From sequence record NC_111505.1: DNA of 64,000 bases, one strand, 5' to 3'. The position numbers and the translations under genes are program-made. Positions 37,615 through 61,313 of the stretch are shown here, in pieces (position 1 is the first letter of the stretch; each line of letters starts with the position of its first letter). The stretch comes from a phage. The notes under the pieces are model-generated. The model was not told the origin of the DNA. It was given only the letters and a program-made list of their open reading frames with translations, and did no database searches.

Positions 37615-37689
37615 AACTGCCTCCTCTTCAAGTTATAGAAAAACTCACTGTATCGCTTTGTAACGAGCTTTTCTATCAAACTGGTGCGA

Positions 37690-37985
37690 TTGCCTTACTT
37701 GGTATAGTTTACGCAGCTGTGTGGCGATTTAGGGGCCTTCCTGTCCGTTTCCACACATAAACTTTAACCAAACTCGCGCGGGAGGCTCTCAACCGACTCC
37801 TTACGGCGCTGGCAAGCTTTCGTCGGTGGCCCACATTAGTGCTCGGCATTTGGCCTGCGCTATCGCTTCGCTCCCACACATGTTAACAGTCCTGCATGTA
37901 TGCACTCCTGTTATTGTGTGCACTATGGAGGCCCGGCATCTCGCCCCTCGTAGGCGAGTGCCAATGAGGGGCCGACACTACCAAT
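37690..37985. other. GC-rich ORF-free island with multiple stems (candidate structured RNA or regulatory leader)
   Basis: About 300 nt visibly more GC-rich than flanking DNA, with no ORF of 60 aa or more in any frame and several complementary segments (GCCCCTC/GAGGGGC, CCGAC/GTCGG, GGGAG/CTCCC). Confidence 0.2.
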
Positions 37986-38117
37986 AGTAAGTAATAAATT
38001 TAAAACATGGTACTTAGGATCTAGTATATTCTACATAAGTTAAGTATATGTACTTTAGTACCATAAGTACTAGATCTTTTATTTTTTATTATTTAGTTAT
38101 TTTAGTTATATTCTTTA

Positions 38118-38201
38118 TGTGTCCGTATCACGGACAGTTAGTGTCCGTATTACGGGCAGATGTGTCCGCGTGACGGACAGTAGTGTCCGTATCACGGACA
38201 G
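38118..38201. repeat. four tandem iterons, each an inverted repeat (TGTCCGT-nnn-ACGGACA)
   Basis: Units at 38118..38137, 38141..38159, 38161..38180 and 38183..38201 (period 20-22 bp), each a palindrome with 7-bp arms; preceded by an AT-rich tract (37985..38117) with AGTAC-type repeats. Confidence 0.7.
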
Positions 38202-38275
38202 TTACTACCCTCTGCTCTGGGATGGACATAAAACATACGAATCCTTATAGTACAGATATTTAAGTTTTTACTGGT

Positions 38276-38626
38276 CTAACCAGTTGTTGACATTCGAATA
38301 ACCTCTTCTGGTGGCAAAACTTTGGAAAATGTGCACCTTTTACCTCTCCCTTGTGTGGATATTTCAACCACTCCTGCACATTCTAAAGTTTTAACGCACG
38401 CTGCTGCTTTTGTTTTCTTTATCCCAACATCTGCTGCAATTTTCCTTGTGCTGGGTGTGAAGCGTGAACTTCCTCCAAGCTTATACCAGTTGTGCAGGTA
38501 GCAGTATACGATCTTGTCATACAAGTCAAGAATAACAACCTCCCCAGTTGTGTCATTCAAAACTTTTGACATAGACAGTATTTCAAGGGGGACTTTAAGA
38601 TATAGCAGCTTATCCCCATCTTTCAT
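38276..38626 (-). CDS. helix-turn-helix DNA-binding protein
   Basis: 116-aa ORF with HTH-like segment (RKIAADVGIKKTKAAACVKTLECAGVVEI), directly adjacent to the iteron array. Confidence 0.5.
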   Translation of the reverse strand: MKDGDKLLYLKVPLEILSMSKVLNDTTGEVVILDLYDKIVYCYLHNWYKLGGSSRFTPSTRKIAADVGIKKTKAAACVKTLECAGVVEISTQGRGKRCTFSKVLPPEEVIRMSTTG

Positions 38627-38673: not shown

Positions 38674-39228
38674 TTACTCACCGCTGTCAATAGCAAAACT
38701 CATTGCAATACGGTATGCCTCTTCTAATGGTAAGAGTCTCCCCCACACATCCCAACCGACATCAAACTGCCTGCCAAACAACTGCTGTGTGGTTCCGTGA
38801 GCATGACCGAACAGTTGGACTGATCCGTGAGGCTTTCTGTTCCACTTTGCAAACTGGTAATGGCTCATACAGATCAAATTCTTGTTGTGGCGAAGCTCGT
38901 AATAATCTACAACCTCATGACCGAACTCTTTCATAATTCTGACAGTCGTTCTTGTGTCATGGTTACCACGAACAAGAATAATATGTCCGTTCAACATATT
39001 TAGAACATCTGGAAGCAATTTGTTGATATTCTTATCATTAGTGCACGCAATATCCCCCAAGTGAAACACAGTGTCTGCAGGTGACACAACAGAGTTCCAC
39101 TTGGTGATGATTCCCGCATTCATACTGTCAAGATTGTGATCATACTGAGATCTGTGTTTTTGACATGAGTCGAACTCCATTACCCGCTGGTGGAGAAAGT
39201 GTGTGTCGCTTGTTACAAAGTATTTCAT
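38674..39228 (-). CDS. calcineurin-like metallophosphatase (Ser/Thr phosphatase family)
   Basis: Metallophosphoesterase motifs SDTHF, GDIACTN, VRGNHD, GHAHG. Start at ATG 39228..39226, 7 nt after the stop of the upstream kinase gene. Confidence 0.6.
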   Translation of the reverse strand: MKYFVTSDTHFLHQRVMEFDSCQKHRSQYDHNLDSMNAGIITKWNSVVSPADTVFHLGDIACTNDKNINKLLPDVLNMLNGHIILVRGNHDTRTTVRIMKEFGHEVVDYYELRHNKNLICMSHYQFAKWNRKPHGSVQLFGHAHGTTQQLFGRQFDVGWDVWGRLLPLEEAYRIAMSFAIDSGE

Positions 39229-39235
39229 ACATTCC

Positions 39236-39646
39236 TCATTTAAGTTTAATGCAGTTTTTAAGCTGGCGTTCCATACGATCCACAACCCTGTCTGGAACAT
39301 CATGAATGCTTTTATTACCATGGCGGTTTTCAACCACGATCACGGTATAACTATATCCATGACTGATCGCCATGTCAATATATTCTTGCACATATTTTTC
39401 TTTTGTAAACGTATTACTTACCACGATACGGTCGTAGCCCATACGCATCATATCTTCTACGTTATCTTTGCACCATTTTGCTGCAAGTGTTACTTTACTT
39501 GCATCCCAATTGTAATTGCCGTCATCGTCGTACCAGAACATATCGTTCTCAAAATGTGGATACAGACCTTCTAAAGATAGCGCATTTGCCAGTGTTGATT
39601 TGCCAGACCCTGGTAGACCACGCACGATATATAGCATTTTAGACAT
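39236..39646 (-). CDS. P-loop kinase (polynucleotide-kinase-like)
   Basis: Start at ATG 39646..39644 (MSKMLYIVRGLPGSGKST, Walker A) with RBS GGAGAG; N-terminus resembles the T4 Pnk kinase domain as recalled. Confidence 0.55.
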   Translation of the reverse strand: MSKMLYIVRGLPGSGKSTLANALSLEGLYPHFENDMFWYDDDGNYNWDASKVTLAAKWCKDNVEDMMRMGYDRIVVSNTFTKEKYVQEYIDMAISHGYSYTVIVVENRHGNKSIHDVPDRVVDRMERQLKNCIKLK

Positions 39647-39674
39647 AGTAACTCTCCGTTTTAATTTTAATGAT

Positions 39675-39703
39675 AGTATACCTAACTGTTTTGTTAATTT
39701 CAA
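39675..39703 (-). promoter_or_regulatory. sigma70-type promoter for the kinase/phosphatase operon
   Basis: Minus strand: -35 TTGAAA (39703..39698), 17-bp spacer, -10 TATACT (39680..39675), about 30 nt upstream of the kinase start. Confidence 0.4.
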
Positions 39704-39706
39704 GTG

Positions 39707-39736
39707 TTGACACCAGGTTATTTGTGTGGCAGAATA
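39707..39736 (+). promoter_or_regulatory. candidate divergent plus-strand promoter
   Basis: -35 TTGACA (39707..39712) lies 4 bp from the minus-strand -35; the -10 is weak (CAGAAT/AGAATA around 39730..39736). Confidence 0.3.
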
Positions 39737-39746
39737 AAGGGACAAA

Positions 39747-40682
39747 ATGACAAATGAGGAATGTATGATGAAGTATTTTAATGCAGACGACCTGGTTGAC
39801 AAAGGTCTTGTAACCAGCAGATATTACCCAGATCTTGGATTAAAGATCTACAAATATGCCAGAAAAGTATTCTACAACAATTTATGGCATTTGTCTCCGC
39901 GTTTACTAGAGTGCCGAGGCATTGTTGTCGGTAATGAAGGAAATGTTGTGGCATGGCCCTTCACAAAAGTGTTTAATTTGGGAGAAAACTCCACCAACCT
40001 GCCTGACAATAAACTTGTGACGGCGGTAGAGAAAAAGAACGGATTCCTTGGTGTGGTATCATCTCATAAAGGTGAACTATTGTTTTCAACAACCGGGTCT
40101 CTTGATTCTCCATATTGTAACCTTGCAAAGGAAACCATCCAGGAGCAATGTGGTAATTTAGATCTCATCAAAAAGGTTATGGGCCATGAAAACATGACAT
40201 TCATGTTTGAAATTTGTCACCCTTCAGATCCGCATATTGTTCAGGAAGACCATGGCGCATATTTGATAGGTTGCAGATATAACGATTCTGGAATAATGCT
40301 ACCAGAAGCAGCTTTAGATGGGATTGCCAAATACCTTGGTGCAAAACGTCCTCACACTGTGCGTGAAATTCCGTTCAGCTATGCAAAAGAATTAGCTGCA
40401 GAAACAAGAGGTGAAGGGTATATGATTCGTAAGCCTTACTACCCTTATGATCTGCAGCTGAAGATCAAGTCTCCATACTATTTGGCACGGAAGGCCGTAA
40501 TGAGGGGTAAAGCTTGGAAGATTTGGGATGATGATATCTTTAAACGTATTGACGAAGAGTTTTACGGCATGGTAAACTTCATTCGTAACAATTACACAGA
40601 AGATGTGTGGAACTGCCTCCTAGAGCAGGAACGCCGTGAGATACTTGACTGCTATTTCCACAACGAGGACTATATGCAATGA
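39747..40682 (+). CDS. putative nucleotidyltransferase / RNA-ligase-like protein
   Basis: Lys-containing KKNGF segment (AVEKKNGFLGVVS) resembles ligase motif I (KxDG/KxHG). In-frame ATGs at 39747, 39765 and 39768; RBS GAGGAA (39756..39761) favours 39765/39768. Confidence 0.35.
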   Translation: MTNEECMMKYFNADDLVDKGLVTSRYYPDLGLKIYKYARKVFYNNLWHLSPRLLECRGIVVGNEGNVVAWPFTKVFNLGENSTNLPDNKLVTAVEKKNGFLGVVSSHKGELLFSTTGSLDSPYCNLAKETIQEQCGNLDLIKKVMGHENMTFMFEICHPSDPHIVQEDHGAYLIGCRYNDSGIMLPEAALDGIAKYLGAKRPHTVREIPFSYAKELAAETRGEGYMIRKPYYPYDLQLKIKSPYYLARKAVMRGKAWKIWDDDIFKRIDEEFYGMVNFIRNNYTEDVWNCLLEQERREILDCYFHNEDYMQ

Positions 40683-41029
40683 AGAAGTTGATTGTGTGGC
40701 TGGATGACTTGAGAGATCCGTCAAATTATGGGCTCCCAGATGCTCTTTGGCTAAAGAATTCCTCTGAGTTTATGGATTTTATTAACGATAAGGGAAAGCT
40801 CTACAGGCGCGTTTCTGAGTGGCACATGGACAACGACCTTGGAGAGGTATTTGAAGGGTACGATTGCCTATCTATGCTGGAGGAAAAATTTGTATTTGGT
40901 AAGCCTCCTGTAGTTGACAACGTGAAGATTTTCGTGCATACTTCTAACCCATCAGCTGCTCGTAAATTCATGCTTGCTGCTGACTCGTTTAAAAAGTTTG
41001 GAATAGAGATTAAACAAAACATCTACTGA
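40679..41029 (+). CDS. hypothetical protein
   Basis: 116-aa ORF overlapping the upstream stop by 4 nt. Confidence 0.45.
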   Translation: MKKLIVWLDDLRDPSNYGLPDALWLKNSSEFMDFINDKGKLYRRVSEWHMDNDLGEVFEGYDCLSMLEEKFVFGKPPVVDNVKIFVHTSNPSAARKFMLAADSFKKFGIEIKQNIY

Positions 41030-41037
41030 GGACACTT

Positions 41038-41799
41038 ATGCGACGACTGATCATTATCTCCGGTGCTGGTTTGAGCGCTGAATCTGGTATCCCAACTTTC
41101 CGATCTGGTGGCACTGCAATGTGGGAGAATTTCAGCATCGATGAGGTGTGTAACATCCACACCTTTGCCAAGAACTACTATAAGGTTCATGACTTTTACA
41201 ATGCACGGCGTGTAGCTCTTGGCAGTGTTGATCCTAACCTTGCACATCTCCGGATCGCTGAGTGGTATTCCCGCTGGTCTGGTCGTGTGATTAACCTGAC
41301 CACCAATGTAGATGATTTGCTGGAGCGTGCTGGTGTAAAACATGAAGATATTTTACATGTCCACGGATATTTGCCAGAAATAGTCTACGAGGATGATGAA
41401 GGGAGTAACGTCATTAAAGACATTGGATACTCTGAGGTAGATGCAAGCAAGTATACTTGGGTTAAGCCTAATGTAGTGTTCTTCGGAGAAGTAGCTCCAA
41501 AGTATACAGACATGTATGACCTGTTGACTTCTCTGACGAGCAATGATATGGTTATCCTTGTAGGGTGCTCCAACACAGTTATCAATTTTAACTGGGAGCT
41601 ATTCCCTGCCTGTAATAAGGGGACCAAACTGCTGATCGTTAACAAATACGACTCACAGCATTTAGGGGAGAATGGCATTTCACGTAGTGACATTTACCAG
41701 TATGAGGATCGCGGCATCCCAGTTTGGTTTAACGGGGCTGTTGACGCTTTCTCTGATAAAACATTCATTGACATCGTAGAAAACTTTATGGAACTGTAA
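41038..41799 (+). CDS. Sir2 (sirtuin)-family NAD-binding protein
   Basis: Sirtuin signatures GAGLSAESGIPTFR, TTNVDDLLERAG and catalytic-type HVHGYL; no CxxC...CxxC zinc-ribbon pairs visible. Confidence 0.7.
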   Translation: MRRLIIISGAGLSAESGIPTFRSGGTAMWENFSIDEVCNIHTFAKNYYKVHDFYNARRVALGSVDPNLAHLRIAEWYSRWSGRVINLTTNVDDLLERAGVKHEDILHVHGYLPEIVYEDDEGSNVIKDIGYSEVDASKYTWVKPNVVFFGEVAPKYTDMYDLLTSLTSNDMVILVGCSNTVINFNWELFPACNKGTKLLIVNKYDSQHLGENGISRSDIYQYEDRGIPVWFNGAVDAFSDKTFIDIVENFMEL

Positions 41800-60551: not shown

Positions 60552-61313
60552 AAACTATAACTGCTCATGTAAAATCTATCTAAACGGGGAAACTCCAGAA
60601 CGGACAATCCCGTGCTAAACGTAACAGAACTCCTGACTAAGAGGAGTCCTGAAATGAGAAAACAAATTCGTGATTTTGAAGGTTATGAAATTGACGAGAT
60701 GGGCAATGTTTATTGCACCCGATACGAAAATGAAAGAATTATTCATTCGTGGGAAGAGATAAACACAGGTTACCGTCTTGTCAGGATACGCAAGAACAAA
60801 AAGACTGTTTGCCTAAGGGTTCACAGACTTGTTGCTGAAGCGTTTTTACCAAATCCAGACAATTTACCATATGTTAAGCACAAAGGTGACAACAGGAAAG
60901 ATAACAGCGTATACAACCTTGAGTGGGGAGCTTGCCCAGACAATACTCAAGAAGGATACGACAACAACTGTTATGCTTTTTACACAAGATGTCACGGGGT
61001 GAAAGCCACCCACAAATTAACTGGTGTGGTTATTCACTTTAAGAGTCTGAGATGTTGTGCTGATGTTTTAGGAATAGATAGAAAAAGAATATCTGCTATC
61101 CTGAAACGTGGTGCACCTAATAACTATGATTACGAGTTCTGTTACGAAATGCCTAACGACTAACCGTGATGAATGTAGCGGTGTAGGGTGTAAGCTGATG
61201 ACACTCGAAATGGTAGACACACTAAGTGTGAAGATATAGTCTGATCTGCATGGGGACATGCAGCAGCACGTAAAGGTGCGGGGGTGGCCTTGCGAACCAC
61301 CTTGAACATAATG
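60552..61313 (+). mobile_element. group I intron in nrdD carrying an HNH homing endonuclease ORF
   Basis: 762 nt. 5' region AATCTATCTAAACGGGG...GACAATCCCGTGCTAAA and 3' end ...CATGCAGCAGCACG...GAACATAATG resemble T4 td-type group I introns as recalled; ends in G61313. Exons join in frame (SMG|CRSFL). Confidence 0.7.
60654..61163 (+). CDS. intron-encoded HNH homing endonuclease
   Basis: Start at ATG 60654 with RBS GAGGAG; HNH_3-type motif VHRLVAEAFLPNP...KHKGDNRKDNSVYNLEW. Confidence 0.65.
   Translation: MRKQIRDFEGYEIDEMGNVYCTRYENERIIHSWEEINTGYRLVRIRKNKKTVCLRVHRLVAEAFLPNPDNLPYVKHKGDNRKDNSVYNLEWGACPDNTQEGYDNNCYAFYTRCHGVKATHKLTGVVIHFKSLRCCADVLGIDRKRISAILKRGAPNNYDYEFCYEMPND

Follow-up and report, generated by a model that had tools for sequence, protein, structure and literature searches.

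Predicted divergent promoters and twin gene starts at the strand switch between putative RNA-repair genes of a Vequintavirus

What drives transcription outward from the short gap at which the genes of an rV5-like phage change strand, and why do two genes of opposite orientation near this gap begin with the same sequence? These questions are raised by a stretch of 64,000 nucleotides (nt) of phage DNA (sequence record NC_111505.1), referred to here as the window. The window belongs to a Vequintavirus, an rV5-like E. coli myovirus: a 2.1-kilobase (kb) query was found to match 119 phage records at 90–99.9% identity, with phages ECP2303 and ECP2309 as the closest (99.9%) and rV5 at 95%, and the gene layout of the window was transferred from the annotation of ECP2303. 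Phages of the rV5 type are widely used for biocontrol and typing of E. coli O157. All window genes to the left of position 39647 lie on the minus strand and all those to the right on the plus strand. The gap of 121 base pairs (bp) at 39647–39767, between a kinase gene and an RNA ligase gene, is therefore one of the two divergent strand switches of the genome; in rV5 numbering, it lies between gene 81 and gene 82. Leftward, the kinase gene is followed by a phosphoesterase gene, and the phosphoesterase and ligase genes share a 17-mer, AAATGAGGAATGTATGA, at their starts. The reading favored here, with modest confidence, is that the strand switch consists of two sigma-70 promoters together with a start region that was copied between the phosphoesterase and ligase genes at a genus-specific rearrangement.

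Promoters were sought by a consensus scan of 8 kb, with the score given as the number of matches over the 12 hexamer positions. The scan contains one sigma-70-type promoter pointing each way out of the gap, both scoring 10/12. The leftward promoter (39675..39703, minus strand), ahead of the kinase–phosphoesterase operon, has the −35 hexamer TTGAAA at 39703..39698, a 17-nt spacer and the −10 hexamer TATACT at 39680..39675. The rightward promoter (39707..39735, plus strand), ahead of the RNA ligase operon and with an extended −10, has TTGACA at 39707–39712, a 17-nt spacer, TG at 39727–39728 and CAGAAT at 39730–39735. Such a back-to-back pair had been proposed in an earlier sequence-only reading of this DNA, and both promoters were recovered in the scan and found to be conserved in relatives; the −35 hexamers are, however, separated by 3 bases (39704–39706) and not by 4. 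Transcription start sites are predicted at approximately 39668 (minus strand) and 39742 (plus strand), about 74 bp apart.

Conservation was assessed in 14 Vequintavirus genomes or contigs, comprising 13 that were aligned and a fourteenth, more distant Logan contig (L027). The block TCAAGTGTTGAC (39700..39711, not assigned to a strand), which is made up of the two back-to-back −35 elements and forms the imperfect palindrome TCAA-GTG-TTGA, is invariant in 13/13 aligned genomes, including the two most divergent, and is unique in the window. In the rightward promoter, TTGAC, TGTGTGG (39723–39729), A39731 (position −11) and T39735 (position −7) were likewise invariant in all 13, and the other −10 positions were variable, giving CAGAAT, CAGGAT, CAAGAT, GAAGAT and CATAGT. 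All relatives retain the leftward −35, which reads as a perfect TTGACA in the most distant one, from IMG/VR; the leftward −10 takes the forms TATACT, TACACT and TAATAT, its second base being A throughout and its sixth T. Both 17-nt spacers diverge freely in Aya, the IMG/VR relative and L027, and the promoter layout is also kept in L027. This footprint falls on the two −35 hexamers, TG, −11A and −7T, which are just the positions of importance for sigma-70, and the pattern of conservation fits working sigma-70 promoters. Invariant sites make up 18/30 of the promoter and Shine-Dalgarno positions versus 27/75 of the other intergenic positions (Fisher p = 0.02).

Several observations counsel caution about the promoter pair. 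The 8 kb yielded 31 promoter-like hits versus 17 expected from shuffles, so that any lone hit is weak evidence. The rightward −10 is poor in most relatives, matching at 3–4 of 6 positions (CAGGAT, 3/6), and the footprint statistic is modest, with most of the genomes compared being closely related. The promoter calls themselves rest on consensus match and conservation. Taken together, divergent promoters are well supported by the comparison, with their activity and start sites being predicted from it.

In the genome paper on rV5, the gene layout around genes 81 and 82 was noted to imply bidirectional promoters in between, none of which was located under stringent criteria (Kropinski et al., 2013; PMC3606486). 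The promoter pair at 39675–39735 is not in the rV5 annotation (GenBank DQ832317). The plus-strand −10 of rV5 itself is the weaker CAGGAT, which is probably why the rightward promoter was missed under those criteria. The pair resembles the predicted sigma-70-type promoter set of rV5 (PMC3606486; DQ832317) in promoter type, within the same genus. A literature search for transcription start sites in Vequintavirus or transcriptomes of Vequintavirinae found no such study among titles and abstracts.

Other sites in the region were also considered. An alternative leftward promoter, TTAACA-16-TATCAT (39697..39670), was rejected, its hexamers not being conserved in the Aya or IMG/VR genomes. The top scan hit of the region, at 11/12 positions, lies inside the kinase gene (39350..39378, minus strand; TTGACA, 17-nt spacer, TATAGT) and corresponds to the "Sigma70-type promoter; P80" of the rV5 record DQ832317. 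Both of its hexamers are kept in four divergent relatives, yet the site is coding sequence; it could transcribe the phosphoesterase gene alone. Separately, the block GTTTTAATTT at 39658–39667 (in kinase sense, AAATTAAAAC) was observed to be invariant in 13/13 relatives, above its surroundings. It is flanked by the leftward −10 on one side and the Shine-Dalgarno sequence of the kinase gene on the other, around the predicted start site and the 5′ leader.

PR and PRM of phage lambda are back-to-back divergent sigma-70 promoters. The arrangement described here resembles them in having two opposed, predicted promoters for host RNA polymerase with adjacent −35 regions and start sites tens of bp apart (a predicted distance of about 74 bp here), serving two gene blocks from a short intergenic region. 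It differs in that symmetry is confined to the two −35 hexamers, with no operator or repressor identified at this locus. The leftward promoter would drive transcription of the kinase and then the phosphoesterase gene, and the rightward promoter that of the RNA ligase gene, then a cREC gene, then a Sir2 gene and onward. As the two promoters would thus drive the two halves of a putative RNA-repair set, the set would be expressed both ways from one short control region.

The 17-mer was found exactly twice in the window and in inverted orientation, at 39752–39768 (plus strand) and 39241..39225 (minus strand), forming an exact 17-bp inverted repeat with arms 510 bp apart. The two inverted copies and the plus-strand coordinates had been described correctly in the sequence-only reading, in which the minus copy was placed 4 nt too high. 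The two copies differ in what they contain. The minus copy (39225..39241) holds AAA, the last kinase codon (39241..39239), the TGA stop codon (39238..39236), GAGG (39237..39234), the 5-nt spacer AATGT, the phosphoesterase ATG (39228..39226) and a final A. It is thus a translational-coupling junction, in which the kinase stop codon shares bases with the phosphoesterase GAGG and is followed, after 7 nt, by the phosphoesterase ATG. The plus copy (39752..39768) is the ligase leader; it holds GAGG at 39756–39759 and a non-conserved ATG at 39765–39767, and its final base is the A of the ATG at 39768–39770. The description of the 17-mer as a ribosome-binding site plus start codon fits the phosphoesterase gene, whose ATG lies inside it; for the ligase gene, the conserved start is the next ATG, at 39768, and a kinase stop codon lies within the minus copy as well.

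Stop codons that overlap or abut the Shine-Dalgarno sequence of the next gene are a general feature of bacterial and phage operons, and the kinase–phosphoesterase junction is of this kind. The ligase gene differs in being preceded by the same sequence, with a stop-codon look-alike, yet having no upstream gene on its strand. The 3′ junction of the kinase gene is of the same form in outgroup phages (TAGGAGAAATAAGTG in PVP-SE1, TAAGGAGAAATAATG in ESCO5 and TAAGGAAAGATATG in BIS47). GAGG stands 5 nt before the ATG at 39228 and 8 nt before that at 39768, both start codons are invariant in relatives, and both starts show the features of Shine-Dalgarno-led initiation, with folding no better than that of shuffled sequence. 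The likeness of the two starts spans about 29 nt, comprising the Shine-Dalgarno sequence, spacer, ATG and K-Y-F codons: with a 3-nt gap, it runs into the coding sequences (ATG AAA TAC TTT versus ATG AAG TAT TTT), and both proteins begin MKYF. A second exact inverted repeat in the window, the 18-nt ACATGCAGCAGCACGTAA, occurs at 31795–31812 and 61255–61272, with arms 29 kb apart.

The start codon of the ligase gene has been annotated three ways in GenBank: at 39747 in rV5 and SophiaRose, at 39765 in JEP1, navn and LL12, and at 39768 in ECP2303, typing phage 4, naswa and SYGMH1. The codon at 39765 is variable, ATG being replaced by ATA in SophiaRose and naswa and by ATT in one IMG/VR relative, and the ATG at 39768–39770 is invariant in all aligned relatives. 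Outgroup ligases start with MKFN, MTKFN or MNKFN, which aligns with the MKYFN encoded from 39768. Because the ATG is invariant and the outgroup N-termini align there, 39768 was taken as the ligase start. A start at 39747 was discarded on three grounds: its Shine-Dalgarno candidate AAGGG is not kept in relatives (TAGACTG in rV5), the IMG/VR relative has no such ATG, and the outgroup N-termini line up from 39768.

Is the likeness of the two starts a matter of chance? The 53 annotated gene starts of the window were compared in register over the same 17 positions, giving 1378 pairs. The phosphoesterase–ligase pair matches at 17/17 positions versus 13/17 for the best of the other 1377 pairs, and the gene start next most similar to the 17-mer matches it at 12/17. 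A position-weight model built from the other starts gave an expectation of 1e-4 identical pairs in the set and of 0.002 in a genome of about 230 genes. With gaps allowed, the local-alignment score of the pair over positions −20 to +15 is 18.5, as compared with a null mean of 6.9 (standard deviation, 1.8) and a null maximum of 15.5. As the pair had been singled out post hoc, the null tail was extrapolated for the top pair, giving an expectation of about 0.1 per window for a score of 18.5; this figure does not yet count the neighborhood of the two starts, which are 527 bp apart, or the shared pathway. In six other Vequintavirus genomes, the score is 14.5–16.5, which places the pair within the top 0.15% of the null or higher. 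The match of 17/17 versus 13/17, the model expectation and the score above the null maximum argue, with some reserve, that the likeness is not due to chance. Its persistence at 14.5–16.5 in the six other genomes suggests that it is old, dating from about the base of the genus.

The perfect identity is a narrower matter. The kinase–phosphoesterase copy reads AAATGAGGAATGTATGA in 9/14 genomes, with the variants GGGATGT (JEP1, SYGMH1), GGATAGT (Aya), GGACAGT (IMG/VR) and GGTATGT (L027). The ligase copy has GGAATGT only in the window, B9-1, JEP1 and SYGMH1, the last with AAAC for AAAT upstream; elsewhere, it reads GGAACGT, GGAACGC or GGAACAT, and the variant CGAGGAATGT also occurs. The likeness of the ligase copy is lost in the IMG/VR relative, which reads AACAGAGGTCTTATTATG. 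The two copies are identical at 17/17 positions only in the clade of the window and at 14–16/17 in other members of the genus, with the likeness lost in one relative. Throughout the 14 genomes, the Shine-Dalgarno sequence, start codons and KYF codons are kept, and the spacer positions change independently in the two copies. By this comparison, the perfect match characterizes a single clade and is not an identity conserved for function.

Elsewhere in the genome, where the sequence-only reading had proposed to look for it, the 17-mer has no third copy: none with up to 3 mismatches was found in the window or in near-identical ECP2303 (positions 1–50000 and 121700–136403), which together cover about 94% of the genome. 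Scanned for exact matches, IMG/VR yielded five, each the only one on its contig; this is about the number expected by chance, and none formed a pair. The 17-mer was therefore discarded both as a general start-region motif, given just two copies in this portion of the genome, and as a virus-wide motif, given the unpaired hits. It was also discarded as an RNA element, as no Rfam family was matched in the intergenic region at E values up to 1 and the predicted RNA structure at the two leaders is no better than that of shuffled sequence (z = 0.14 and 0.45).

What history could have produced the twin starts? The outgroups examined were the Seunavirus phages PVP-SE1 and 4MG, Mydovirus BIS47, Henunavirus Hena1, Phapecoctavirus ESCO5, Pakpunavirus PaP1, Aeromonas phage phiA047 and Vibrio phage VnaP. 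In seven of these phages, from six genera or groups (Hena1, BIS47, PVP-SE1, 4MG, ESCO5, PaP1 and VnaP), the genes run on one strand in the order phosphoesterase, ligase, (cREC), kinase; the eighth, phiA047, has at least ligase then kinase, with no phosphoesterase gene in the stretch examined. The order kinase then phosphoesterase, inverted beside the ligase gene, was found only in Vequintavirus, as against the eight outgroups, which indicates that the kinase and phosphoesterase genes moved in the Vequintavirus ancestor. The start regions of the outgroups are without the 17-mer. The nearest phosphoesterases outside the genus start with MKFVTAD (63–64% identity) or MDFITSD, and only in Vequintavirus do both proteins start with MKYF. 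A search of IMG/VR for intermediate relatives returned a single Vequintavirus contig and no intermediate arrangement; IMG/VR contigs with 54–64% identical phosphoesterases have a different neighborhood, with no adjacent kinase gene.

In the likeliest course of events, one of the two start regions would have been overwritten by a copy of its counterpart in the Vequintavirus ancestor, at about the time when the kinase and phosphoesterase genes moved and became inverted relative to the ligase gene. The copying may have been a duplication at the rearrangement or a short-patch gene conversion helped by a pre-existing ATGAAATT, and the two copies would then have drifted independently. The sequences, their positions and conservation, and the rearranged gene order are observed; the copying event is what we infer from them. 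The suggestion of a recombination footprint in the sequence-only reading is thus plausible and is preferred over co-regulated translation, in view of the genus-wide high similarity and a rearrangement found only in Vequintavirus, with the event itself remaining conjectural.

Two other histories were tried and set aside. T5-like Aeromonas phage AhSzw-1 has a kinase gene followed by a ligase gene, with the junction TAAGGAATGTTATGAAA, and prompted the idea of a duplicated ancestral kinase-to-ligase junction. The ligase of the window is nearer those of phages with the order ligase then kinase (48–49% versus 35% identity), and the ligase gene precedes the kinase gene in phiA047, VnaP, PaP1, ESCO5 and all the other Vequintavirinae examined. 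Whole replacement of the phosphoesterase N-terminus (MIDH in Seunavirus versus MKYF here) was weakened as an explanation by the nearer homologues with MKFVTAD and MDFITSD.

Copying of a start region has its own difficulties, and the strongest competitor draws on several of them. No single step was found that leads from the ancestral gene order to the present one and also yields the repeat, nor does any single inversion produce that order. An M-K-F start is already common in both protein families, so that some of the likeness may have arisen in parallel. The phage has further stop codons that overlap a TGAGGA-type Shine-Dalgarno sequence, for example TACTGAGGACACTTATG before the Sir2 gene, and the ligase leader is quite different in the IMG/VR relative. 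If the two starts are independent ribosome-binding sites that each need GAGG, an A/T-rich unstructured spacer and ATG followed by AAA or AAG, these shared constraints, a tendency toward M-K-F and the picking afterwards of the top of a distribution might account for their resemblance. Such a coincidence is rather unlikely. It would explain why the match is perfect only in the clade of the window and 14–16/17 elsewhere, and it is in keeping with the recurrence of TGAGGA-type sites over stop codons, the MKF-like N-termini of the outgroups in both families, the extrapolated expectation of about 0.1 per window for a score of 18.5 and the presence of an unrelated exact inverted repeat of 18 nt in the same window. 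It fits poorly with the rank of the pair in six further genomes (top 0.15% or better of the null), the expectation of 1e-4 under the in-register position-weight model, the location of the two genes 527 bp apart in one pathway and the same extra Tyr codon in both proteins as compared with the nearest outgroups.

Function rather than history could also hold the two copies together. A single trans-acting factor, be it a repressor or nuclease like T4 RegA or RegB or a small RNA, might bind both mRNAs and set the output of phosphoesterase and ligase. The same sense sequence does lie across the Shine-Dalgarno sequence and start on both mRNAs, both genes belong to one putative RNA-repair pathway, and nearly all relatives retain AAATGAGGA and ATGAARTAYTTT. 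A shared translational operator is nonetheless improbable: the site occurs only twice in about 94% of the genome, its middle drifts independently in the two copies with no co-variation, its two copies are out of register by 3 nt relative to the conserved start codons, it has neither a predicted RNA structure (z = 0.14, 0.45) nor an Rfam family, the IMG/VR relative no longer has the ligase copy, and nothing beyond Shine-Dalgarno function and coding is needed to explain the conserved parts. The independent drift at the spacer, the lack of a third copy and the difference in register also speak against the co-regulated translation initiation that the sequence-only reading had offered as an option. 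A further thought is that the 17-bp inverted repeats are the ends of a 510-bp segment, holding the kinase gene and both promoters, that flips or did so until very recently. The kinase gene would stay complete in either orientation, its final codon and its stop codon being part of the repeat, and AhSzw-1 does show a kinase gene followed by a ligase gene with a similar junction (TAAGGAATGTTATGAAA). If this were so, the kinase gene would be coupled to the phosphoesterase or the RNA ligase gene according to state, changing within a phage population how much of each RNA-repair enzyme is made. The segment recalls invertible ones of the Hin/Gin/Cin or Fim type in being bounded by inverted repeats. 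It differs from them in that 117/117 full-length Vequintavirus records are colinear in one piece, the segment being inverted in none, and no invertase or recombinase gene adjoins it, the neighbors encoding an HTH_36 protein, the phosphoesterase, the kinase, the ligase, cREC and Sir2. Moreover, most genomes carry imperfect copies of the repeat, whose 17 bp offer little length for homologous recombination, and the order kinase then ligase is exceptional among relatives. An active or recently active invertible cassette is hence very improbable.

With the copied start region retained as the preferred account, the genes on either side may be described. The kinase (39236..39646, minus strand; rV5 open reading frame (ORF) 81) is a P-loop, polynucleotide-kinase-like protein of 136 amino acids (Pfam AAA_33, E 2.7e-10), whose homologues in relatives are labelled 3′-phosphatase/5′-polynucleotide kinase or ATPase; its gene has its own Shine-Dalgarno sequence, GGAG, at 39657..39654. 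The phosphoesterase (38674..39228, minus strand; rV5 ORF80) is a calcineurin-like metallophosphoesterase of 184 amino acids with the N-terminus MKYFVTSDTHF (Pfam Metallophos_2 and Metallophos). The ends of both genes agree with the annotated coding-sequence ends in ECP2303 and rV5. On the other side, the Rnl1-type RNA ligase (39768..40682, plus strand; rV5 ORF82; Pfam RNA_lig_T4_1, E 8e-15) has 304 amino acids from the conserved ATG, the N-terminus MKYFNADDLV and 48–49% identity to the ligases of PVP-SE1 and ESCO5. Directly 3′ of it lies a gene for a cREC_REC "cyclic-phosphate processing receiver" protein (40679..41029, plus strand; Pfam PF20274, E 4.5e-14), a product that is "hypothetical" in GenBank records, and then the Sir2 gene (41038–41799, plus strand; Pfam SIR2, E 1e-26).

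Judged by their family names, the kinase, phosphoesterase, Rnl1-type ligase, cREC and Sir2 genes would form an RNA-repair gene set. The polynucleotide kinase-phosphatase PseT and Rnl1 of phage T4 and the bacterial Pnkp/Hen1 proteins are RNA-repair systems. The set described here resembles them in combining a 5′ kinase, a 2′,3′/3′ phosphoesterase and an Rnl1-family ligase, here beside phage tRNA genes, and by this analogy a role in the repair of cleaved tRNA is plausible. Unlike in T4 PseT, the kinase and phosphoesterase are encoded by separate genes, and the phosphoesterase is calcineurin-like, as in bacterial Pnkp, instead of being of the HAD type found in T4. A further difference from all of these systems is that a cREC gene and a Sir2 gene follow the ligase gene.

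The tRNA genes form a cluster of six, 3.5 kb to the left of the strand switch. Inside this cluster, ARAGORN reported a tRNA-like gene of 99 nt with a four-base anticodon (atcc) at 35170–35268 (minus strand), for which the Rfam tRNA score is 37.5 bits; no tRNA is annotated at the matching place in the rV5 record. The cumulative GC skew has its minimum, or turn, at 38–40 kb, with the skew changing from about −0.12 to +0.15 exactly at 39647–39767. This change could reflect the direction of transcription alone or a nearby origin. Within a gene-free stretch at 37616–38275, four tandem units of 21–22 nt, GTGTCCGTATCACGGACAGTTA, occupy 38119–38204, each holding a small palindrome, GTCCGT..ACGGAC. They lie directly 5′, in minus-strand sense, of an HTH_36/DUF6945 gene (38276–38626, minus strand) that carries the RefSeq name "replication initiation protein". 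The units look like iterons beside an initiator gene and mark a candidate replication origin. In the region of the strand switch, approximately 18 records of "Campylobacter phage" (some UNVERIFIED, with C. jejuni as host) were found to be 96–97% identical to E. coli rV5-like phages, which suggests mislabelled hosts or contamination.

What does the strand switch tell about rV5-like phages? As a control region, it is unremarkable apart from a minor evolutionary oddity, and the understanding of promoters, translation and phage evasion of defense is unchanged by it. The comparison places the promoters that the rV5 genome paper expected but did not find, thereby filling an annotation gap of rV5-like phages, and settles the start codon of the RNA ligase gene where GenBank records disagree. 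It further indicates that the RNA-repair genes were rearranged specifically in Vequintavirus, and the twin start regions would neatly illustrate how a short sequence can be copied from one gene to its neighbor.

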